From assembly GCA_964348725.1 (NCBI GenBank), contig CAYGDG010000003.1, positions 30,775 to 94,774 on the forward strand: a stretch of DNA of 64,000 nt, read 5' to 3'. Positions 12,740 to 63,729 of this stretch are shown here, piece after piece (position 1 is the first letter of the stretch; the number at the start of each line of letters is the position of its first letter). This DNA is from an uncultured Candidatus Saccharibacteria bacterium (GTDB lineage Bacteria > Patescibacteriota > Minisyncoccia > Phycocordibacterales > UBA9973). The translations under genes were made by a program, and so were the position numbers. Under the pieces are notes generated by a model. It made no database searches. It was not told the DNA's origin and was given only the letters and a program-made list of their open reading frames with translations.

Positions 12740-14149
12740 CTATCTTTTGGTGAAATAATACTCGTAACCGTATGCGTTGCGTGTGGTGGAAGTCATCGTC
12801 TGAATGCTTATGATCCTGCTGTAATAATACTCATATACAGTAAGGCGGCCATTCAAGAATGCCAATTGATATGCCGCCACATCCGGCTCGGAGACGCGTA
12901 TTTCTCTGCCCGCGGTATTTATATAGCCGAAGCTGCGCGCATAAAAGTGCGCAAGTGTCCAAGCAAAAGTCTGCAGGTCTTGCCGCCCGTCCCAACCATA
13001 CGCGCGCGCCAAGGCTTCGTTCCCAGCTATTTGTCTCTGAAATACAGTCTCGATTCCTTCGTGGTAGCGGACTACTGCATCTATCGGCGGAATAACATTT
13101 TGTCCCAAGACGAACGGGCCGTTGGGATTCAAATTTCCATTACTTCCGTTATTCCCATTGTTTCCATTGTTCTGATTATTCCCATTTCCTCCCGACGTAG
13201 TATTTCCGCCGCCGTTATTGTTCACTCCCCCGCCTCCGCCATCATTTACTCCGCCGCCATCATTATTTACCGGAGTATCTCCACCCCCACCGATACCTCC
13301 GCCGACATATGTGCCTCCGCCGCCTGTGCCGTTGCAATTTTCATCGTCATCATCACCGCATGGAGCCTGGTACGGCTGTCCGCCGGGCGTTCCTCCGGGA
13401 TTCGTATTTCCCGGTGAAGCGGTAGTGAAGGACAGAACACCTCCGTAATACGTAGTGCCTCCGCTTGCCGCCGCCGCGCGGAATTCATATTGCGTGCCGG
13501 AAGTGAGACTATTGATGAGCGATACCATGTCTCCCGCGCCCGAGCTATGGCTTACGATTGAAGTTTTTTTCCAAGGCTCGCTGATATCGATTAGTAGCCC
13601 CCCAGCAGTCTCCGTCACTGGATTTATTTTTCTGTATTCGAACCACGTCGTCGAGACAGAAGTGGAATTGTAAGAACCGTTCACATACGAAGAGTCAGCG
13701 TCCACCACCAGGGCATCTTCGGTGATGACGGAAGTAGCGAAACAAGAGGCGCATGGAGTGGTGACGAATTCTTTCACATTGCCATAACGTATCTCGGTCC
13801 TACTGGAAGCGATGGCGCAGTAATAATATTTGGTGTTCGGCTCGAGCCCGGTGATTTTTTTAGAGAAGGAGGTGGTGCCGCCAGATCCGATATTCGTCTC
13901 TTTGGTATATTTCATGTCCGAACCGAAAACGTCATTACAGAACACGGGTGGGATATCGAGGGTCGCATAACGGAAATATCCGGAGCTCGGAAATCCTTCC
14001 GGATTAGCGGACCCGGAGAGAATGACCGAATTTTCCGTAATGGATGCAGCATTTCCGGTCAGGACGGAATTTATCGCCAGCGCCGAAAAGGGCATCCAGA
14101 GCAGGGCTGACATCGCTATTATATTTTTTATATTTTTTTGCATCTTCAA
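12740..14149 (-). CDS. Secreted protein: two FN3-like repeats, Gly/Asn-rich low-complexity linker, C-terminal GWDG-motif domain
   Basis: 469 aa; signal peptide; linker GGGGTYVGGGIGGGGDTPVNNDGGGVNDGGGGGVNNNGGGNTTSGGNGNNQNNGNNGNNGSNGN; C-terminal ALARAYGWDGRQDLQTFA. Confidence 0.5.
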   Translation of the reverse strand: MKMQKNIKNIIAMSALLWMPFSALAINSVLTGNAASITENSVILSGSANPEGFPSSGYFRYATLDIPPVFCNDVFGSDMKYTKETNIGSGGTTSFSKKITGLEPNTKYYYCAIASSRTEIRYGNVKEFVTTPCASCFATSVITEDALVVDADSSYVNGSYNSTSVSTTWFEYRKINPVTETAGGLLIDISEPWKKTSIVSHSSGAGDMVSLINSLTSGTQYEFRAAAASGGTTYYGGVLSFTTASPGNTNPGGTPGGQPYQAPCGDDDDENCNGTGGGGTYVGGGIGGGGDTPVNNDGGGVNDGGGGGVNNNGGGNTTSGGNGNNQNNGNNGNNGSNGNLNPNGPFVLGQNVIPPIDAVVRYHEGIETVFQRQIAGNEALARAYGWDGRQDLQTFAWTLAHFYARSFGYINTAGREIRVSEPDVAAYQLAFLNGRLTVYEYYYSRIISIQTMTSTTRNAYGYEYYFTKR

Positions 14150-17682: not shown

Positions 17683-18063
17683 ATGAGTAAAATAACTAAA
17701 GAAATCAGGTTATTGGCCTGCTCTGCTCTGCTTTTGGGAGGTGTTTTCCTCTTCTCCTACTCTTCTGTTTTCGGTGCTGCGGGCGCGATTGATTTTGGCG
17801 GAAATATGATAACGAGCGTGGTGGAATGCACCTGCAGCACCGGTTCTCAGATCTCTGTTACCGGTTATGGACGCAAAAATTCAAAACATACCGGTACATA
17901 TTTATACACTCCAGGGACGATAGTCATCAAAGGAAAGGTGGAGCCCGGCAAAAAAATTATCGGCCAATACACCTCTGGAGGAGGCCAATGTTTGATAACA
18001 GGAACCCCATGTGAAAAATTGCCTATAACTAAAGGCACGTTTAAGATCATCAGCACTAATTAA
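17683..18063 (+). CDS. Small secreted Cys-containing protein, divergent from T4SS-like operon
   Basis: 126 aa from internal ATG of ORF 17614..18063; N-terminal hydrophobic segment LLACSALLLGGVFLFSYSSVFGAAGA; 6 Cys. Confidence 0.45.
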   Translation: MSKITKEIRLLACSALLLGGVFLFSYSSVFGAAGAIDFGGNMITSVVECTCSTGSQISVTGYGRKNSKHTGTYLYTPGTIVIKGKVEPGKKIIGQYTSGGGQCLITGTPCEKLPITKGTFKIISTN

Positions 18064-18883
18064 CAGTTTTTGTTATTTGTATCCAATCTGTAAGCGTGAG
18101 TTCTTCCGCACGGGTATTTATGGGTATATCAGTGGGTAATTTCGCTATATTTTTCAGGTTTCCAGCCAGTATCTTGCGCTTATGTGCAAAGCCGGCGCGG
18201 ACAATAGTCCAAAATTTTTCTTCATCTACTGCTTTTTGCCCAAAAAGCTTGCGGTTTAGGTCTGTAATAGCTATAACCGCCGAATCCACCTTCGGCGCCG
18301 GGGAAAAATACCGCGCCGGCACTTTCATCACCATCTTCGGATTACCATATGCTTTGACCGATATGGAAAGGATGCTTTCTTTACCATCGTTCGCGATAAT
18401 TCTCTGCGCCACTTCCCTCTGTACGAGCAATACCATGCGCTCTGGCTGATTTTTTTCCGTCAAAAACTTTTTCAATATCGCGCCTGTGATGTTGTACGGT
18501 ATGTTTGCTATTACTTTATACCTCACCCCCTGCCCCCTCTCCTTATCAAGGAGAGGGGAAATTTCAAACTCCAAAATATCTTCATTTTTTAAAATTAATT
18601 TTTTATTTTGTATTTCATTCGCAAATTTTTCCTGCAAGTATTCAAAAAGCTCTGAATCTTTTTCCACGGCGATGACTGTCGCCCCTGCGCCAAGCAATTT
18701 TTCCGTCAGCGCACCCTTACCGGGGCCGATTTCAAGCACAATGTCTTTTGCATTCACTTCACCCGCCGAAATAATCGCGGTCAGCGCCGCTTGCGATTTC
18801 AAGAAATTCTGCCCGAGTGATTTTTTTGCTCTGTGTCCAGGCCCGGCCTGGACAGTAGATTTGGTTTTATATTTTTTCATCAT
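18056..18883 (-). CDS. rsmA: 16S rRNA (adenine1518/1519-N6)-dimethyltransferase RsmA/KsgA, carrying two in-frame palindromic repeat insertions
   Basis: GHRAKKSLGQNFL, VLEIGPGKGALT (SAM site), ANIPYNIT motifs; REP-A at 18834..18854 and hairpin repeat at 18520..18558 lie inside the ORF. Confidence 0.85.
   Translation of the reverse strand: MMKKYKTKSTVQAGPGHRAKKSLGQNFLKSQAALTAIISAGEVNAKDIVLEIGPGKGALTEKLLGAGATVIAVEKDSELFEYLQEKFANEIQNKKLILKNEDILEFEISPLLDKERGQGVRYKVIANIPYNITGAILKKFLTEKNQPERMVLLVQREVAQRIIANDGKESILSISVKAYGNPKMVMKVPARYFSPAPKVDSAVIAITDLNRKLFGQKAVDEEKFWTIVRAGFAHKRKILAGNLKNIAKLPTDIPINTRAEELTLTDWIQITKTVN
18520..18558 (-). repeat. 37-39 bp hairpin repeat family C (RPE-like), copy 1, in-frame inside rsmA
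   Basis: rc = CCCCTCTCCTTGATAAGGAGAGGGGGCAGGGGGTGAGGT; encodes SPLLDKERGQGVRY within KsgA. Confidence 0.7.
18834..18854. repeat. REP-A palindrome copy 1 (TGTCCAGGCCCGGCCTGGACA)
   Basis: Perfect 19-21 bp palindrome; 13 bp downstream of RAYT1 stop, inside rsmA N-terminal codons. Confidence 0.8.
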
Positions 18884-19526
18884 ACGTAAGCCAATTTTCT
18901 ATTTCTGCTTTTACTTCATCCGTATTTTGAAAATAATCCGGAAATGGGCTCTTTTCCAGGATCTTTTTCTCCGAGCGTTCCAGATTCAAATAATCCACAT
19001 AGCTTGAAAAATTAAATTTTTTCAAGTATTCTTTCGCGCCGGAAATATTTTTTAAGCCGGCTTCCTTCCATCGCGGCTCTATTATTTTGAGTGGATTGAG
19101 ATGAATATAAGCGTATAAGTATTTTAAATAATTGTCGTTTTCGACATGCTGCGATTTTGTTTTTCCCTGAAAAAGAGATCCGCTCCGGTCATATTTTTTG
19201 TTGAAATATGTGGAATAACTTGTGAGTAATTTTAAAAGAAACTGGCTTGCATCTTTCTCATTTTTGATCCGTACAAGAATATGAAAATGATTCGGCATTA
19301 GGCAATACGCCCCGATATCTACCAAACTCTCCCCTCTTTCCACTGTCCAGGCCCGGCCTGGACTTGTCTCAGCGTCAGAATATTTCGGCGATTCTTTGCC
19401 GTTGCATAAATAAAGTAGCTTATGAAATCGCGCATAATCTTTTTCATCCTTGAAAATCGTCATTTTATTTGTCCCACGATTATACAGATGATAATACTCC
19501 CCTTGGGCAAAAGGTATTTTCCTCAT
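18867..19526 (-). CDS. REP-associated tyrosine transposase / IS200-like Y1 HUH transposase (RAYT1)
   Basis: 219 aa; GEYYHLYNRG, HUH motif CLMPNHFHILV, catalytic Tyr region LLTSYSTYFNKKYDRSGSLFQG; flanked by REP-A. Confidence 0.75.
   Translation of the reverse strand: MRKIPFAQGEYYHLYNRGTNKMTIFKDEKDYARFHKLLYLCNGKESPKYSDAETSPGRAWTVERGESLVDIGAYCLMPNHFHILVRIKNEKDASQFLLKLLTSYSTYFNKKYDRSGSLFQGKTKSQHVENDNYLKYLYAYIHLNPLKIIEPRWKEAGLKNISGAKEYLKKFNFSSYVDYLNLERSEKKILEKSPFPDYFQNTDEVKAEIENWLTYDEKI
19345..19363. repeat. REP-A palindrome copy 2, in-frame inside RAYT1
   Basis: GTCCAGGCCCGGCCTGGAC; encodes SPGRAWT within the transposase. Confidence 0.8.
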
Positions 19527-19539
19527 CCTCCTATTATAC

Positions 19540-19560
19540 TGTCCAGGCCCGGCCTGGACA
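19540..19560. repeat. REP-A palindrome copy 3
   Basis: TGTCCAGGCCCGGCCTGGACA, 14 bp upstream of RAYT1 start. Confidence 0.8.
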
Positions 19561-19648: not shown

Positions 19649-20299
19649 ATGAAAAAACTTATGATCGTCCTCGCACCTTTGGTGATGTTGCTTGCTTCTT
19701 GCGGTATGTCACAGGAAGAAAAATTGCGGTATTCGGCAAAATCCGGCAATGCCGCGGAGGCGCTCTTTGGCGAATCCGCGATAACGCTTCCCACTGCGCT
19801 CAATCTGAACACAATTTCACCGGTAGATTCTTTCACCGTCCCGGCTCTCAAAAAGAGCTTTGATCCGAAAGAATTGATCAATGAGTCCGGCGGCATCGCG
19901 AACTTCTATATTTTTAGCAGTTTTCAAAAAATTCTGGACGATTTCAAGCCCGTGATGCTCGATACATATCCTATGAACATAAAAATATGGGAGACGGTGA
20001 AGAGCACTACTGATCTTGAAATTTTTGCTCAAATCAGGACCGAGCCGATGAGCGAAACGGAATTTGTGAAACTCTTCGTATATCTTATTTCCAAGCAGCC
20101 AAATGGCGAGCCGGGGAAATTGCTTACGAGCGGATACGCGAATATTTTCCATGTCCGCACAAGCTCCGGAGCGTCGGTCGCTCTCTACGCGGGCTGGGGC
20201 TCCGTCAGCGAGCGCTGGTATGTGCACGCGCGCGGCCTCGATTCTTGGGACGGTGGCGAACGCGTCTTTTCCCGGGGCAATGAGCCCTTGGATTCTTAA
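19649..20299 (+). CDS. Lipoprotein of unknown function
   Basis: 216 aa; lipobox MLLASCG; C-terminal ALYAGWGSVSERWYVHARGLDSWDGGERVFSRG duplicated downstream. Confidence 0.6.
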   Translation: MKKLMIVLAPLVMLLASCGMSQEEKLRYSAKSGNAAEALFGESAITLPTALNLNTISPVDSFTVPALKKSFDPKELINESGGIANFYIFSSFQKILDDFKPVMLDTYPMNIKIWETVKSTTDLEIFAQIRTEPMSETEFVKLFVYLISKQPNGEPGKLLTSGYANIFHVRTSSGASVALYAGWGSVSERWYVHARGLDSWDGGERVFSRGNEPLDS

Positions 20300-20453: not shown

Positions 20454-20745
20454 TTGAATTTCGAGAGCTTGGCCGGGTATGCCTTGCCGGGGAGTGGGAT
20501 TCATATTCCGAAACAAAAAATATTTTGCCCGTGGCGGGCGCTGGAGGATTTTAGATCCCAGATAAAATACAGCACGATCCCTGATATAAGTTATGCTTGG
20601 GTCGGCAGTGGCGCAGGTGGCGCTTGCCACACAGCGACGGTCGCTCTCTACGCGAACTGGAACTCCGACAACGAGCACTGGAATGTGAACGCGAACGACC
20701 TCGATTCTTGGAACGGAGGCAAACGCGTCTTTTCCCGATGCAGAT
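20454..20745 (+). pseudogene. Truncated paralog/remnant of lipoprotein gene 3' end (no in-frame stop before running antisense into pcrA)
   Basis: ~125 bp direct repeat of 20160..20290 at 20620..20745 (~80% identity); encodes ATVALYANWNSDNEHWNVNANDLDSWNGGKRVFSRC; preceded by extended -10 TGTATAAT at ~20389..20396. Confidence 0.4.
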
Positions 20746-20784
20746 CATTTTTTCCCGCCAGCAAAAGCCGGCGGGATTTTTTTT

Positions 20785-20803
20785 GTCCAGGCCCGGCCTG
20801 GAC
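20785..20803. repeat. REP-A palindrome copy 4
   Basis: GTCCAGGCCCGGCCTGGAC immediately after CCCGCC...GGCGGG hairpin; overlaps pcrA stop codon by 1 nt. Confidence 0.8.
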
Positions 20804-22812
20804 TAGATGTAAATGGTTTTTATGCCGCTGTCTTCCCCTTCTTTCTCCAAAATATCCGCTGGAATATCCTGTAAGAATTCACTCGGCGCATTTATCTGGC
20901 GGGAGCCGAAGATGGTGCGGAAGTTCGCGAATGACAAATGCAGTTTTTTCTTGGCGCGGGTGAGGGCCACATAAAACAGGCGGCGTTCTTCCTCGGCATC
21001 TTCGGCGCTTTTTCTGTCGCCGTCTCTTCTGTGCGGGAACAATCCGTCTTCTAATCCGGTGATGAATACGGTGCCGAATTCCAAGCCCTTTGAAGCGTGC
21101 ACGGTCATCAGGCGCACGGCGTTTTTGTTTTCTTTCTTGGTTTCCGTAATCATCATGGAGTCCTGATCGCTGGCGAGTGATGCATCCTCTAAAAGTTTTT
21201 CCACGCCCGCCCCGGCGGGTAAACCGGCACTGCCTTCCAGGTTGTCATATTTTAAGGCGAGCGTGGCGAGCTCTTTGATGTTCTCCAATCGCTCCACATC
21301 TTCATCCGTGCCGTTTTTCAATTCTTCTTCAATGCCCGAGCGCTTCACGGTGAAACGAATTACTTCGCTTGTTTTTGCCGTCTGGATTTTTTCTTGTATT
21401 TCTTCAAGTGTTTTGTAGAAATTTTGAATTTTGAGTTGCATCTTTATCGGCAGTTCTGCTTTTTGTCCGCTGAAAAGTTTTGCCATCGTCGTCTTGCCGA
21501 TACCACGTGCCGGAAAATTGATGATGCGCTTGATATCCGACAGGCTTTCCGGATTCAAAGCCGCGCGGAGGTATGCCAGGGTATCCTTGATTTCCTTGCG
21601 CTCAAAGAATTTTACGCCGAGCACTTGGTATGGGATGTTGTAGCGGAGGAGTGCTTCTTCCAATGCGCGGGATTGGTAGTTTGCTCTATATAGTACCGCG
21701 ATGTCGGCGAAAGAGTTTTTCTCAGTCGCTCGGTTCTCCTCGCTGTCGCTCGGCCACTCCTTCAAAAAATCTCTTTCACCGACATCGCAGATTTCCAAAA
21801 TTTTCGTCGCCACGAATTCCGCTTCCTCGCCTTCGCTCAACGCTTCATATAATCCGATCTTCTCCCCCGCCGCATTCTTAGTAAAAAGATTCTTGTCCGG
21901 GCGGAATTTATTTTTCTTGATCACATTGTTCGCCGCTTCCAAAATATTCTGCGTGGAGCGGTAATTTTCCTCAAGCAACACTATCTTTGCATTCGGGTAA
22001 TCTTTTTCAAATGATAAAATATTTTTCAAATTTGCCCCGCGCCAGGAATAAATATTCTGGTCAGCATCACCCACTGCTGTAATATTTTTATGCTTCTCCG
22101 ATAGCAGGCGTGTCAGCATATATTGCACCTCATTCGTGTCCTGATACTCGTCTATATGAATGTACTGCCAGCGGTCTTGGTATATCTGGCGTATTCCCTC
22201 ATTCTCTTTTAAAAGCCGCGTCGCTTTCAAGAGCAAGTCATCAAAATCCAGCGAATTTTCTTTCGCTTTTTTCTTTTCGTATGACTGCCATACCTGTGCC
22301 ACGATTTTGGAAAGATAGTCGCTCGCATTTTCAGCATAGACAGCCATATCCGTGAATTTTCCTTTCTCGCGGCTGATGATATTCCGTATCTTTTTCGGTT
22401 CGTATTGCTTTGGGTCCAAGCCGATTTCTTTTAAAGATTCTTTTACCATGGACGCGGTATCTCCCTCATCCAATATCGTAAAATATTTTGTCAGTCCCAA
22501 AGCGCGCGCATTTTCTTTAATAATAAAAACTCCGAGCGAGTGAAAAGTGGAGACGAACGGCACGGTACTCTGCCCCTTGGCATTTTTTTCAATTTCAGCG
22601 ATGACGCGCTCACGCATTTCTTTGGCCGCTTTGTTTGTGAAAGTGACGGCCAAAATATTCTCCGGCGCGATGCCCTGCTTGATGAGGTTCACGATTCTGT
22701 GAGTTATTGTTTTCGTCTTCCCCGCGCCCGCACCAGCCACGATAAGAAGCGGCCCGTCTTTATGCTGGGCCGCTTCTTTTTGTGCGTCATTTAAGCCGTG
22801 GAGGTGTTCCAT
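20803..22812 (-). CDS. pcrA: ATP-dependent DNA helicase PcrA/UvrD family
   Basis: 669 aa; Walker A AGAGAGKTKT, motifs TFTNKAAKEM, DEYQDTN, VGDADQNIYSWRGA, VHASKGLEF. Confidence 0.85.
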   Translation of the reverse strand: MEHLHGLNDAQKEAAQHKDGPLLIVAGAGAGKTKTITHRIVNLIKQGIAPENILAVTFTNKAAKEMRERVIAEIEKNAKGQSTVPFVSTFHSLGVFIIKENARALGLTKYFTILDEGDTASMVKESLKEIGLDPKQYEPKKIRNIISREKGKFTDMAVYAENASDYLSKIVAQVWQSYEKKKAKENSLDFDDLLLKATRLLKENEGIRQIYQDRWQYIHIDEYQDTNEVQYMLTRLLSEKHKNITAVGDADQNIYSWRGANLKNILSFEKDYPNAKIVLLEENYRSTQNILEAANNVIKKNKFRPDKNLFTKNAAGEKIGLYEALSEGEEAEFVATKILEICDVGERDFLKEWPSDSEENRATEKNSFADIAVLYRANYQSRALEEALLRYNIPYQVLGVKFFERKEIKDTLAYLRAALNPESLSDIKRIINFPARGIGKTTMAKLFSGQKAELPIKMQLKIQNFYKTLEEIQEKIQTAKTSEVIRFTVKRSGIEEELKNGTDEDVERLENIKELATLALKYDNLEGSAGLPAGAGVEKLLEDASLASDQDSMMITETKKENKNAVRLMTVHASKGLEFGTVFITGLEDGLFPHRRDGDRKSAEDAEEERRLFYVALTRAKKKLHLSFANFRTIFGSRQINAPSEFLQDIPADILEKEGEDSGIKTIYI

Positions 22813-32965: not shown

Positions 32966-33038
32966 TGCGGCGTAGGAGAATCGAACTCCTGTCTCATCCT
33001 TGGCAAGGACGTGTTCTACCACTAAACCAACACCGCGC
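32966..33038 (-). tRNA. tRNA-Gly(GCC)-like, with two central acceptor-stem mismatches
   Basis: Anticodon arm CGTCC-TTGCCAA-GGATG, T-arm GGAGT-TCGATTC-CTCC; acceptor GCGCGGT vs ACGCCGC gives C:C and G:G at pairs 4:69 and 5:68. Confidence 0.55.
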
Positions 33039-33105
33039 AAAAACAGTATAATATTTTATACCTAGAAATGCAATATATCTATAAATAATGTACTATATTA
33101 AGGAC

Positions 33106-33180
33106 GCACTCGTAGTGAAATGGATATCACGACTGCCTTCGAAGCAGTTATTGGGGGTTCGAATCCCTCCGAGTGCACCA
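33106..33180 (+). tRNA. tRNA-Arg(TCG), CCA encoded
   Basis: Acceptor GCACTCG/CGAGTGC perfect; anticodon stem ACTGC/GCAGT, loop CTTCGAA; T-loop TTCGAAT; 75 nt. Confidence 0.75.
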
Positions 33181-33274
33181 GCGTCAAAAAGCTATTTTAG
33201 TCAATAGTGTCCAATAATATCTCTTTATTTAATCTTTATCACCTATAGGTATAATAGGTAAAAGGGTTGAAAAC

Positions 33275-33283
33275 TGTGGATAA
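33275..33283 (-). promoter_or_regulatory. Perfect DnaA box (TGTGGATAA) in AT-rich tRNA-flanking intergenic region
   Basis: rc = TTATCCACA. Confidence 0.4.
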
Positions 33284-33400
33284 CTATGTTGGAAAGGTGT
33301 ATAACGGACACTTTTCCTGTCTCATATTAGACCCTTATTTTTATAAAATAGCCTTATAAATAAAGCTATAATGTAAAAGACAGCAAAAATAACTGTATTT

Positions 33401-33414
33401 GTTTCACGTGAAAC
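33401..33414. promoter_or_regulatory. Perfect 14-bp palindrome GTTTCACGTGAAAC overlapping start region of yraN-like gene
   Basis: Self-complementary; GTTTCACGTG recurs at 33601..33610 and CATGTGAAAC at ~43031 upstream of pnp. Confidence 0.35.
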
Positions 33415-33419
33415 ATATT

Positions 33420-33833
33420 ATGCCAAAGGTTTTTACTTCAAATACACAAAAAATAGGTGAAATAGGCGAGAATATAGCCTGTGAGTTCCTCATGAAACAT
33501 GGTTTTTCGGTAATTGAACGCAATTATACGAAAAAATGGGGTGAAATTGATATAATTGCCGAAAAAAGCAACAAAATATACTTTATAGAAGTTAAATCTG
33601 TTTCACGTGCAACTTTGCCGGATGTTTCGCATGAAACAAAGGGGAATGACGAATATCGTCCAGAAGACAACATGCACCCTTGGAAATTAAAGCGGCTTTC
33701 ACGGACAATACAAACCTATATTCTGTCCAAGAAGCTGGATGAAAGGGAATGGCAGGTAGACCTATTGGTGGTGTATATGGACATACGGAACCGCACGGCC
33801 AGGGTAAAGGTCATGTCAGATATTATTCTATAG
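33420..33833 (+). CDS. yraN: YraN/UPF0102 family endonuclease-like protein
   Basis: GEIGENIACEFLMKHGFSVIERNY..GEIDIIAEK...IYFIEVK PD-(D/E)xK-like pattern; ATG 33420 preferred over TTG 33399. Confidence 0.6.
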   Translation: MPKVFTSNTQKIGEIGENIACEFLMKHGFSVIERNYTKKWGEIDIIAEKSNKIYFIEVKSVSRATLPDVSHETKGNDEYRPEDNMHPWKLKRLSRTIQTYILSKKLDEREWQVDLLVVYMDIRNRTARVKVMSDIIL

Positions 33834-33843
33834 AATGAAAATG

Positions 33844-33914
33844 TCGGGGCGCTGGGAATCGAACCCAGTCTATCTGTTCCCAAAACAGACGTACTACCGG
33901 TATACTACGCCCCG
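33844..33914 (-). tRNA. tRNA-Pro(TGG)
   Basis: Acceptor CGGGGCG/CGCCCCG; anticodon stem TCTGT/ACAGA loop TTTGGGA; T-loop TTCGATT; 71 nt. Confidence 0.75.
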
Positions 33915-33943
33915 ATGCTTTTTTGTGCCGGGATATGAACGGC

Positions 33944-34017
33944 TGGTGCGGGATAAGGGAGTCGAACCCTTCACCACAGTTTGGAAAACTGTTATTTTAC
34001 CGATAAACTAATCCCGC
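33944..34017 (-). tRNA. tRNA-Gly(TCC), CCA encoded
   Basis: Acceptor GCGGGAT/ATCCCGC; anticodon stem ACAGT/ACTGT loop TTTCCAA; T-arm AAGGG-TTCGACT-CCCTT. Confidence 0.75.
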
Positions 34018-37857: not shown

Positions 37858-37939
37858 TGCCGTGGGAGGGATTTGAACCCTCAAGCCCGAAAGCATACGC
37901 TTCTGAAGCGTACGTGTATACCAATTCCACCACCACGGC
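37858..37939 (-). tRNA. tRNA-Leu(CAG)
   Basis: Acceptor GCCGTGG/CCACGGC; anticodon stem TACGC/GCGTA loop TTCAGAA; long variable arm; T-loop TTCAAAT. Confidence 0.7.
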
Positions 37940-40909: not shown

Positions 40910-41173
40910 ATGTTAGCAACCAAGAAAAAGCAGACAATAATCAAGAAACATCAGGTCCACGAAAAGGATACCGGTTCTACCGAGGTCCAAGTGGCCGTGC
41001 TTTCCGTCCAGATAGACGAGCTTGCCAAGCACTTGAAGAAGCACAAAAAGGATAATCACTCCCGCCGCGGCCTCATCAAGATGGTGGCCGATCGCAGGAC
41101 GCATCTGAAGTACTTGCTCCGTAAGGACAAGACTCGCCACGACGCTCTCGTCAAAAAGATGAATCTCGCCTAA
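40910..41173 (+). CDS. rpsO: 30S ribosomal protein S15
   Basis: 87 aa; DTGSTEVQVAVLSVQIDELAKHLKKHKKDNHSRRGLIKMVADRRTHLKYL. Confidence 0.9.
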   Translation: MLATKKKQTIIKKHQVHEKDTGSTEVQVAVLSVQIDELAKHLKKHKKDNHSRRGLIKMVADRRTHLKYLLRKDKTRHDALVKKMNLA

Positions 41174-41177
41174 ATTA

Positions 41178-41214
41178 CCCCCTCTGCTTAATAAGGAGAG
41201 GGTCGGGGTGAGGT
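41178..41214 (+). repeat. Hairpin repeat family C copy 2 (intergenic, after rpsO)
   Basis: CCCCCTCTGCTTAATAAGGAGAGGGTCGGGGTGAGGT. Confidence 0.7.
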
Positions 41215-62596: not shown

Positions 62597-63340
62597 TCAC
62601 TCTCCATTCACAAACACTGAGGCTGTATTCCAGAACTTGGACATATCCATAGAGTCCGAAATAAAGATACTCATTATTTTCATGCGGCCATTGTAGATGT
62701 TTTTGAATTCACCTACTGCTTGCATGACAGGATACGCACAGGTAGCTGGAATGAAAGCCACCATTCGCTCAAAGCCTTTTTTCTCGCATGCATCAAAAAG
62801 AGGCATGAATTCCTGGGCACATCCGTTCTTCAGCGAACAAGACTTATAGCGAGCATGATTATCAAATTTATTTCTCAGTATTGTTTCACTGAAGAAATAG
62901 CTGTGATGGTACGTCATTTCTGGCGGCGGGTTGAAAACCTTGCTCACAAGATTTAATTCTTGTTTCATCGCTCTTTTTGCAAAAGAAGGAGGGATTTCCG
63001 ATGCGCGATAGAATTCCTTCCTAGCTTCGCTTTTCGGTTGCGTTGTTTTTTCCACATGTTGCCAGTCATTTGCGAGGAGCAGAACTTTTGCTCCCACAGT
63101 CTTCTTTACAAGTTCAGCAGTGATAGAAAATGTTTCTGTTGGGAAATGAGACATATAAGGATGTTTCTTAACCCAGTCAGAAGTTTTTTTATTCTTGCAG
63201 TCCTCAAAGATGCCCGGAACAAGAATGTCAGAGCCGGGCGTTTCGTGGACGAGCGAGAAATGTCCTCCTAGAATTACGGAGGCGGAGCTTTCAGAAAGGA
63301 AATCCAGTGAAGTTTGGCGGATGGCGTCTTTATTTTTCAT
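62597..63340 (-). CDS. Hypothetical protein
   Basis: 247 aa ORF. Confidence 0.45.
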   Translation of the reverse strand: MKNKDAIRQTSLDFLSESSASVILGGHFSLVHETPGSDILVPGIFEDCKNKKTSDWVKKHPYMSHFPTETFSITAELVKKTVGAKVLLLANDWQHVEKTTQPKSEARKEFYRASEIPPSFAKRAMKQELNLVSKVFNPPPEMTYHHSYFFSETILRNKFDNHARYKSCSLKNGCAQEFMPLFDACEKKGFERMVAFIPATCAYPVMQAVGEFKNIYNGRMKIMSIFISDSMDMSKFWNTASVFVNGE

Positions 63341-63428: not shown

Positions 63429-63464
63429 CCCCTCTCCTTTTCAGGAGAGGGGTAGGGGTGAGGT
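63429..63464 (+). repeat. Hairpin repeat family C copy 3 (intergenic)
   Basis: CCCCTCTCCTTTTCAGGAGAGGGGTAGGGGTGAGGT. Confidence 0.7.
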
Positions 63465-63480
63465 GTATTCTCTTATTCCT

Positions 63481-63729
63481 TTATTCTAAATCCTTATCCA
63501 GAGAATCAAATTCCGCATTTGTGCCGAGGTCGGCTTCTATGTCGGAGATGTCATCCGAAGATGAAAGGGTGTCAGCGGCAGTTCCCGTTCCTGTGTCCTG
63601 CACATTGCTTCTTTCGAAGCGGCCCTGCTTCGCGTTGCTGATGAGGTATACACCTCCGATGACGAGCAGGATGATAATGATGACCGAACCTACGAGCGCA
63701 CCGTTTGATTTTTTGTTGGTGGGTTCCAT
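63481..63729 (-). CDS. Small membrane protein with acidic C-terminus
   Basis: 82 aa; TM ALVGSVIIIILLVIGGVYLI. Confidence 0.4.
   Translation of the reverse strand: MEPTNKKSNGALVGSVIIIILLVIGGVYLISNAKQGRFERSNVQDTGTGTAADTLSSSDDISDIEADLGTNAEFDSLDKDLE

Follow-up and report, generated by a model that had tools for sequence, protein, structure and literature searches.

The rsmA (ksgA) gene of an uncultured Patescibacterium raises the question of how a short palindromic repeat comes to lie within the coding sequence of a conserved enzyme, and whether the repeat serves that enzyme or is only carried by it. The gene, encoding a 16S rRNA adenine dimethyltransferase, lies in the 64,000-nt stretch of contig CAYGDG010000003.1 analysed here (the window), and the repeat occupies positions 18520–18558. 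An earlier interpretation made from the letters and open reading frames (ORFs) of this DNA (the sequence-only reading) had likened it to the Rickettsia palindromic elements (RPEs). We conclude that the rsmA copy is probably a solitary repeat of the BoxC/PIT/TMECO type, inserted in a connector of RsmA and tolerated there as a selfish passenger, and not a functional module of the enzyme.

A hairpin-plus-tail element had been claimed at three loci of the window, and this was borne out. A relaxed hairpin pattern gave four matches at three loci, copy 1 matching on both strands, with no other locus in the window, and the chance expectation was 0.00 in 100 dinucleotide-preserving shuffles. The tail GGGGTGAGGT occurred exactly three times, each time adjoining a hairpin. 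Copy 1, of 39 nt, lies inside rsmA on the minus strand; the plus strand at 18520–18558 is ACCTCACCCCCTGCCCCCTCTCCTTATCAAGGAGAGGGG, and the gene strand reads CCCCTCTCCTT-GAT-AAGGAGAGGGG-GCA-GGGGGTGAGGT. Its parts are a C-rich arm, CCCCTCTCCTT (reverse complement of 18548–18558), the loop GAT, a purine arm, AAGGAGAGGGG(G) (reverse complement of 18533–18544), a short loop, and a mirror block, GGGGGTGAGGT (reverse complement of 18520–18530). A single mismatch in the 12-nt arm window of the detector leaves an 11-bp perfect stem, and the RNA hairpin was predicted to fold with −21 kcal/mol (z −2.1). Copy 2 (41179–41214, plus strand, one stem mismatch) starts 6 nt past the stop codon of rpsO (ORF 40910–41173) and lies directly 5′ of a terminator-like hairpin (cccgcctctggcggg, then a T-rich run). 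Copy 3 (63429–63464, plus strand) is intergenic, with the start of ORF 62597–63340 (minus strand) on one side and the stop of ORF 63481–63729 (minus strand) on the other. The length of 37 bp given earlier is approximate: it holds for copy 2 if an extra 5′ C at 41178 is included, while copy 1 has 39 nt, a multiple of three, and copies 2 and 3 have 36 nt as listed.

The G-rich strand is the plus strand in two of the three copies. No further copy was found in ∼9 kb past the window end or ∼8 kb before its start, giving a density of about three copies per 81 kb of window and flanks. Rfam at the gathering threshold returned five tRNAs only for the whole window and no RNA family matching the element; the tRNA genes lie at 32966–34017 and 37858–37939.

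Each copy has the same architecture: a C-rich arm, a loop of 3–4 nt, a complementary purine arm, a second loop of 2–3 nt and, as the third block, a G-rich mirror of the purine arm. The stems are of 10–11 bp with no or one mismatch, and the mirror block would allow G*G, A*A or T*A triads at 12/12, 9/10 and 10/10 positions in copies 1, 2 and 3 respectively. This is the layout of the triplex motif TMECO, 5′-CCCTCNCCC N3-6 GGGNGAGGG N3 GGGNGAGGG (Holder et al., 2015, PMC4666352; Kaplan et al., 2016, PMC5100583), which has three blocks, a 3–6 nt loop and a second loop of ∼3 nt (PMC4666352, and Hoyne/Maher 2000 cited there). The window element shares with BoxC/PIT/TMECO a core (CCCTCTCC / GGAGAGGG / GGGTGAGG), a similar length (34–39 nt), multiple dispersed copies on both strands, and the solitary state of these copies, which have no adjoining transposase. 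The literal TMECO pattern is matched at 8/9 positions in each block (CCCTCTCCT, AGGAGAGGG, GGGTGAGGT). The differences amount to one coordinated change, by which the outermost triad of the three blocks is T:A*T and not C:G*G, and the element is therefore a sequence variant of TMECO rather than TMECO itself. On these features it belongs to the known BoxC/PIT/TMECO intrastrand-triplex class, as the variant of AT-rich genomes, and is not the private third repeat family for which it had been taken.

TMECO has been counted at 3610 copies in 262 proteobacterial genomes, whereas the host here is a Patescibacterium. Oligonucleotides of the Escherichia coli motif form a purine-motif intrastrand triplex in vitro, an in vivo footprint was reported negative, and the elements are linked to local instability, with no known mobility gene and no known function (PMC4666352). 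The arrangement seen in the window copies can likewise, to judge from its blocks, fold in DNA as a hairpin or as an intrastrand purine-motif triplex. The copies of E. coli K-12 are always intergenic (PMC4666352); in the window copies 2 and 3 are intergenic, but copy 1 is inside a gene.

The class extends well beyond the window, which answers the concern that the element might be unique to it. A pattern scan (CCTCTCC N5-10 GGAGAGG N2-5 GGGGTGAGG), with one genome taken per species, retrieved at least 120 stretches from Proteobacteria, Chloroflexota, Planctomycetota, Acidobacteriota, Cyanobacteria, Bacteroidota, Armatimonadota and others. The third block was assessed in a mirror-versus-direct test designed to be non-circular. 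It used 62 perfect hairpins whose purine arms are asymmetric. The 3′ block was closer to the mirror in 42 of them, closer to the direct repeat in four and tied in 16, and a mirror on the 5′ side was found in none of the 62. Changes in the stem are thus accompanied by changes in the third block, in the way expected under a triplex or mirror constraint. The AT variant also recurs in other phyla, in genomes of low GC content, and on 25 viral-contig stretches. One viral-classified contig (L212, IMGVR_UViG_3300048592_001291) carries five near-identical AT-type copies in one orientation within 7.3 kb; the other viral contigs have one or two each.

The gene that carries copy 1 was then characterized. 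rsmA (18056–18883, minus strand) is an intact ORF of 275 amino acids matching PF00398 (E 1e-53), and its product scored 217.6 bits against TIGR00755 (cutoff 171), as expected of a member of the RsmA/KsgA family. All residues invariant across 40 orthologues are kept, EIGPGKG, EKD, DIL and NIPYN being invariant in the alignment. In the rsmA frame copy 1 encodes SPLLDKERGQGVR with no stop codon, and four of the other five frames are also stop-free. The peptide is placed between ..NEDILEFEI and YKVIANIPYNIT, directly before the NIPYN motif, so that reading through the insert gives ...EFE ISPLLDKERGQGVR YKVIANIPYNIT. The in-frame position in a loop before this motif, as first described, thus holds, and copy 1 is predicted to be translated as 13 residues within RsmA. 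We found no support for calling rsmA essential, as had been done; it is one of the ribosome-biogenesis genes that are less conserved in candidate phyla radiation (CPR) bacteria (PMC12641178).

The source is metagenome-assembled and short repeats can confuse assemblers, so that a repeat-induced chimera, in assembly or binning, might have placed the element in rsmA. This is highly improbable. The same RsmA protein was found on three contigs of independent assemblies and separate sequencing runs (NCBI, ENA and Logan run ERR3094292), and an assembly artefact is therefore unlikely; in addition, the junctions are in frame, rsmA is colinear with its orthologues on both sides, and a 39-nt repeat is below typical read length. 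An AlphaFold2 model, the structural check proposed with the sequence-only reading, had a mean confidence (pLDDT) of 84.7 and a pTM of 0.80. The insert was modelled as a helix (residues 108–116) plus a turn, with pLDDT means of ∼84–92 over 10-residue blocks. The N-terminus, residues 1–26, fell below 50 and is disordered in the model.

Comparison with orthologues supported insertion into the connector. The nearest relatives are Nomurabacteria/Patescibacteria RsmA proteins, ∼56–69% identical. The connector, measured from DIL to YK(I/V)IANIPY, has 17 residues here; in 116 orthologues its median length is 12 (mode 13, minimum 7). The loop has thus gained a net ∼4–9 residues and not 13; of the earlier statement that the repeat adds or replaces about 13 residues, it is replacement of most of the native connector that stands. 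The alternative that this loop is the original connector, its likeness to the repeat being coincidental or convergent, draws on KsgA of Bacillus subtilis, which has a native connector of similar length and aligns gap-free through the insert region. We regard it as very improbable, since all three blocks of the element are present in the 39 nt, which match two intergenic copies in the window and others in further phyla, and since the insert sequence, whose presence in repeat-free relatives would have marked the loop as native, is absent from all 120 closest orthologues.

The same connector has received other sequences. In 22 of the 120 orthologues it contains at least six extra residues, which stem from triplex-motif-like, REP-like and MITE-like (miniature inverted-repeat transposable element) sequences. 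The orthologue P0008 has a related element, CACCCCCTCCCAA-CCTCCCCCTT-GGCG-AAGGGGGAGG-GG, in the connector in opposite orientation to the gene. In its relative P0085 the connector is short and empty, and the same type of element lies at a second site, after NINRNNF; P0057 has three elements, a single one in the connector and two, inverted relative to each other, at the second site. Element placement and orientation differ among orthologues; the elements therefore entered independently, at a site that is permissive. In this clade, small repeats of several kinds have landed repeatedly in one surface connector of RsmA.

Further insert families are found in the connector of other orthologues (LAGIGT.., SGPRKKSPDH..). 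In P0014 (L126 10001–10843) an element of ∼100 bp with perfect 16-bp terminal inverted repeats (ACGCAAAGTCTTTTTG...CAAAAAGACTTTGCGT) is translated as ..LGRSDGDGQRKFSTENFRGE..; similar cases are P0032, P0036 and P0075. This element is closer in form to an RPE than is the repeat in the window. A MITE was considered as an identity for the latter and rejected, as it has no terminal inverted repeats and no target-site duplication, its sole inverted repeat being the internal hairpin.

RPEs are Rickettsia-specific, ∼150 bp long and encode a conserved peptide of ∼30–50 amino acids (Ogata et al., 2000, summarized in PMC10969869). The window element has 36–39 bp and 12–13 codons, encodes another peptide and resides in a different phylum, and membership of the RPE family was therefore rejected. 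What holds of the description RPE-like is the behaviour: selfish palindromic repeats lie in frame in unrelated housekeeping genes, at sites compatible with the fold. The two probably have no shared origin, the window element being of a pan-bacterial class.

Residence in genes is not peculiar to rsmA. Among 140 elements in the 120 loci listed, 30% lie in spans that are open for at least 60 codons on both sides, as compared with 73% of random positions; the elements are depleted from genes, not excluded. Pfam confirmed solitary in-frame copies in four genes: one, in Mfd, separates the UvrB-interaction domain from D3; another is part of the linker in a MeaB–methylmalonyl-CoA-mutase fusion; and two lie within domains, the adenylation domain of an NAD-dependent DNA ligase and a radical-SAM N-terminal domain. 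The loci of these copies, all in other phyla, are L007 1065–4649 (minus strand), L012 2926–6423, L067 3173–6157 (minus strand) and L099 232–2616. Such predicted translation inside housekeeping genes of several phyla is, as far as we found, new for this class.

How the repeats spread was approached through their neighbours. The lead came from two Burkholderiales genes for methionyl-tRNA synthetase (MetRS) in which inverted elements flank a DUF559 (PF04480) domain, the whole unit being in frame. E. coli K-12 has a single DUF559 gene, ycjD, and 23 TMECO copies; one copy lies ∼170 nt downstream of the ycjD stop codon (region of L127 11204–11761), and a degenerate arm overlaps that stop codon. A metagenome scan by DUF559 alignment yielded 80 loci (L128–L207; 42–69% identity), in which elements at most 250 nt from the gene were scored with a generic hairpin-plus-mirror detector. 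Such an element was present at 59 of the 80 loci, and density was 3.0 per kb near the gene compared with 0.086 per kb in the outer flanks, a 35-fold enrichment. Of the remaining loci seven were inspected by eye, and in each of these the copies were degenerate or had long loops; at L166, a groundwater locus among the seven, the flanking elements are of the AT type seen in the window. After de-replication, a flanked member was found in 55 of 74 clusters at 90% identity and in 44 of 62 at 70%.

The arrangement is ordered. The plus strand carries 36 of the 43 upstream copies and the minus strand 46 of the 50 downstream ones, so that the mirror blocks face the gene. Both flanks had the same arm variant in 29 of 34 pairs (shuffle mean 14.8, maximum 23). 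The downstream copy usually starts ∼50 nt before the DUF559 stop codon, and the C-terminus of the nuclease is therefore encoded by the repeat. The fold of DUF559 is a Vsr-like PD-(D/E)XK fold (PDB 3hrl), distantly related to a group-I-intron homing endonuclease (3r3p).

Whole repeat–DUF559–repeat cassettes were found in frame in MetRS, between the anticodon and tRNA_bind domains; in HrpA-like DEAH helicases, between RecA1 and RecA2; in an MmeI-type enzyme; and in N6/N4 DNA methylases. The cassette loci are L018 1777–4515 (minus strand), L006 2–2161, L128 3–2771, L129 87–2741, L153 1053–4322, L142 1314–4355, L139 2–2686 and L158 555–4301. A further open span leads out of a cassette and on into a Mur-ligase gene. 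The in-frame cassettes showed no features of inteins or introns. In being selfish nuclease genes in frame in conserved genes, with a related fold, they resemble inteins and free-standing homing endonucleases such as I-Bth0305I (PDB 3r3p), but they differ in having no splicing domain or intron; the nuclease domain, together with the Pro/Gly/Ser-rich linkers encoded by the repeats, would therefore be retained when the host protein matures.

In having inverted copies of a genome-dispersed repeat on either side of a small nuclease gene, the cassettes also recall the REP/RAYT system. The differences are that DUF559 is a PD-(D/E)XK (Vsr-like) nuclease and not an HUH/Y1 transposase, that its repeats carry a third, mirror block, that its ORF usually reads into the downstream repeat, and that whole cassettes are translated inside host proteins. 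We tentatively propose, with the balance of probability tipped slightly against it, that BoxC/PIT/triplex-motif repeats, orphans since the 1990s, and YcjD-like DUF559 nucleases together form an unrecognized pan-bacterial mobile element paralleling REP/RAYT. Its repeats would be stop-free in most frames and supply Pro/Gly/Ser-rich linkers, cassettes and solitary repeats would settle in frame and unspliced in genes that are essential or conserved, and the rsmA copy would be a solitary derivative. We found no paper linking DUF559 or ycjD to BoxC or triplex motifs; our coverage of the literature was incomplete, and a prior description is possible. The idea of phages as vectors was dropped: the viral contigs gave only two weak DUF559-like matches, the one measured lies several kb from the repeat, and they have no bearing on mobility.

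The following course of events would account for the rsmA copy. In a Nomurabacteria-like Patescibacterium lineage, the element would have entered the connector that joins the strand binding S-adenosylmethionine (..EDIL) to the catalytic strand (YKVIANIPY), and the greater part of the native connector would have been replaced by it. It may persist because its length is a multiple of three, because the family is stop-free in most frames, and because the site is naturally variable and permissive, and it would since have been read as 13 residues of RsmA. Solitary copies may be mobilized in trans, or left behind, by a YcjD-like DUF559 nuclease of the Vsr/homing-endonuclease fold, as other genomes suggest. 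At the level of sequence the comparisons establish the class of the element, its in-frame position, its absence from the orthologues and the independence of the orthologue insertions; by analogy with the RPEs of Rickettsia, a tolerated selfish passenger is the simplest reading.

Several observations weigh against this account. No RsmA relative above 69% identity exists among 5.8 billion proteins, and hence no true empty-site allele. In P0001 and P0008 the 13 codons have taken the place of most of the native connector and are no clean addition to it; either a replacement or an insertion with an accompanying deletion took place, not a clean insertion. No target-site duplication is visible at the three window copies or in P0008 and P0085. 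As to mobility, no DUF559 gene was found in the window or in the Patescibacteria loci L001–L003 and L124–L126, nor, by listed Pfam annotations only, in ∼17 kb beyond the window (L208–L210). The DUF559 seeds had themselves been found beside repeats, and the association is therefore shown only for the YcjD-like subfamily. Mobilization by DUF559 in this genome is thus unsupported. Finally, the stem and mirror of copy 1 are essentially intact despite its coding location, which could reflect either recent arrival or selection on DNA or RNA structure, the latter meaning function and not a passenger.

This last point bears on exaptation, in which a DNA or RNA structure (hairpin, triplex or non-template G-quadruplex) or the peptide itself would serve rsmA, for instance through pausing of transcription or translation, mRNA stability or contact with the 30S subunit. 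Stem and mirror are longer in copy 1 than in copies 2 and 3, though synonymous drift should erode them in coding DNA; its insert is modelled as an ordered helix; and the same loop has been targeted repeatedly in orthologues. The inserts in those orthologues are, however, unrelated in sequence, orientation and length (triplex-motif-like or MITE-like, 6–80 amino acids), which suggests a permissive site rather than a required function, and most orthologues manage with a connector of 7–13 residues. Moreover, Maher and colleagues saw no promoter, terminator or polymerase-blocking activity in vivo, and purine-motif triplexes cannot form in RNA (both summarized in PMC4666352). We therefore consider exaptation unlikely.

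The absence of a local nuclease gene bears in turn on whether any enzyme is needed. The repeats might spread by template switching or hairpin-primed repair, DUF559 genes being merely a preferred landing place or cargo. Mobility genes were not found near the E. coli copies, which were linked to local instability (PMC4666352), no DUF559 gene lies near the three window copies, and target-site duplications were not seen. Against this, the ordered inverted geometry, the matching flank variants and the 35-fold enrichment resemble REP/RAYT and not random landing, and DUF559 shares its fold with Vsr and with a group-I-intron homing endonuclease. Enzyme-free spread is a possibility that we take seriously and yet rate as rather doubtful. 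Insertion of a tolerated repeat of the BoxC/PIT/TMECO type remains our preferred explanation for copy 1.

The same gene carries a second repeat, REP-A, in its N-terminal extension, as had also been claimed. This copy (18832–18853, minus strand; core GTCCAGGCCCGGCCTGGAC at 18835–18853) has its core within codons 11–17 of rsmA, is read as TVQAGPGH, and also flanks the downstream (3′) end of the adjacent gene. No in-frame ATG, GTG or TTG was found between REP-A and the conserved KKSLGQNFL; REP-A must therefore be translated in rsmA. The adjacent gene (18867–19526, minus strand), whose last 17 nt overlap the start of rsmA, encodes a RAYT-like Y1 (HUH) transposase of 219 amino acids with HFHIL and YIHLNP motifs (PF01797, E 1.6e-7). 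It scored 40 bits against NF047646, below the cutoff of 80, and is therefore a distant RAYT. Inverted REP-A copies flank it at 18834–18864 and 19530–19560 (87% complementary), so that repeat and gene fit the REP/RAYT (REPtron) arrangement.

The REP-A core occurs four times in the window, at 18835, 19345, 19541 and 20785, all within 18.8–20.8 kb. The second copy (19342–19363, minus strand) is in frame inside the RAYT ORF, as SPGRAWTV; the third (19538–19559) lies just upstream of the RAYT start codon; and the fourth (20782–20803) is within or after ORF 20454–20963 (plus strand). Two copies, those at 18835 in rsmA and at 19345 in the RAYT ORF, are thus translated rather than extragenic. The P0010 lineage has the same uvrD–RAYT–rsmA order, with RAYT 62% and RsmA 64% identical and REPs at the same places. 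The RAYT of L125 has an in-frame REP at the same position (SPGKAWTV), and REP copies of that locus lie at 2465, 2521, 2723, 3236 and 3953. The REP loop is CCCGG in the window and AAAGG or AAAGA in all L125 copies. With one loop sequence per genome, translated REP copies have therefore been homogenized with the rest of the family in each genome, and this uniformity points to concerted evolution or else to repeated replacement. We rejected the idea that the local RAYT is connected with the triplex-motif repeats, as the RAYT gene is flanked by REP-A only and REP-A is confined to 18.8–20.8 kb.

Between uvrD and the RAYT gene are two paralogous ORFs without Pfam match (19649–20299 and 20454–20963) that share a 110-nt stretch, 84% identical; the second continues through the REP-A copy. 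In relatives, uvrD is directly beside rsmA or RAYT. Elsewhere in the window, imperfect tandem repeats at 13134–13324, with a 9-nt period and GC-rich (families D3 and D8), are probably within a repetitive ORF. The window start is ∼1–2 kb from dnaN–dnaA and rpmH–rnpA–yidC–jag (L209 5674–10468), near the likely replication origin.

The repeat class to which copy 1 belongs has been studied for 30 years in E. coli without a known origin or function, and is now extended to Patescibacteria and to coding DNA. The connector of rsmA provides a case of an RPE-like phenomenon outside Rickettsia, and the cassettes in MetRS, HrpA-like helicases and DNA methylases point to a class of unspliced in-frame nuclease insertions. 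Through the association with DUF559, what moves or maintains BoxC/triplex repeats becomes experimentally addressable in E. coli K-12.

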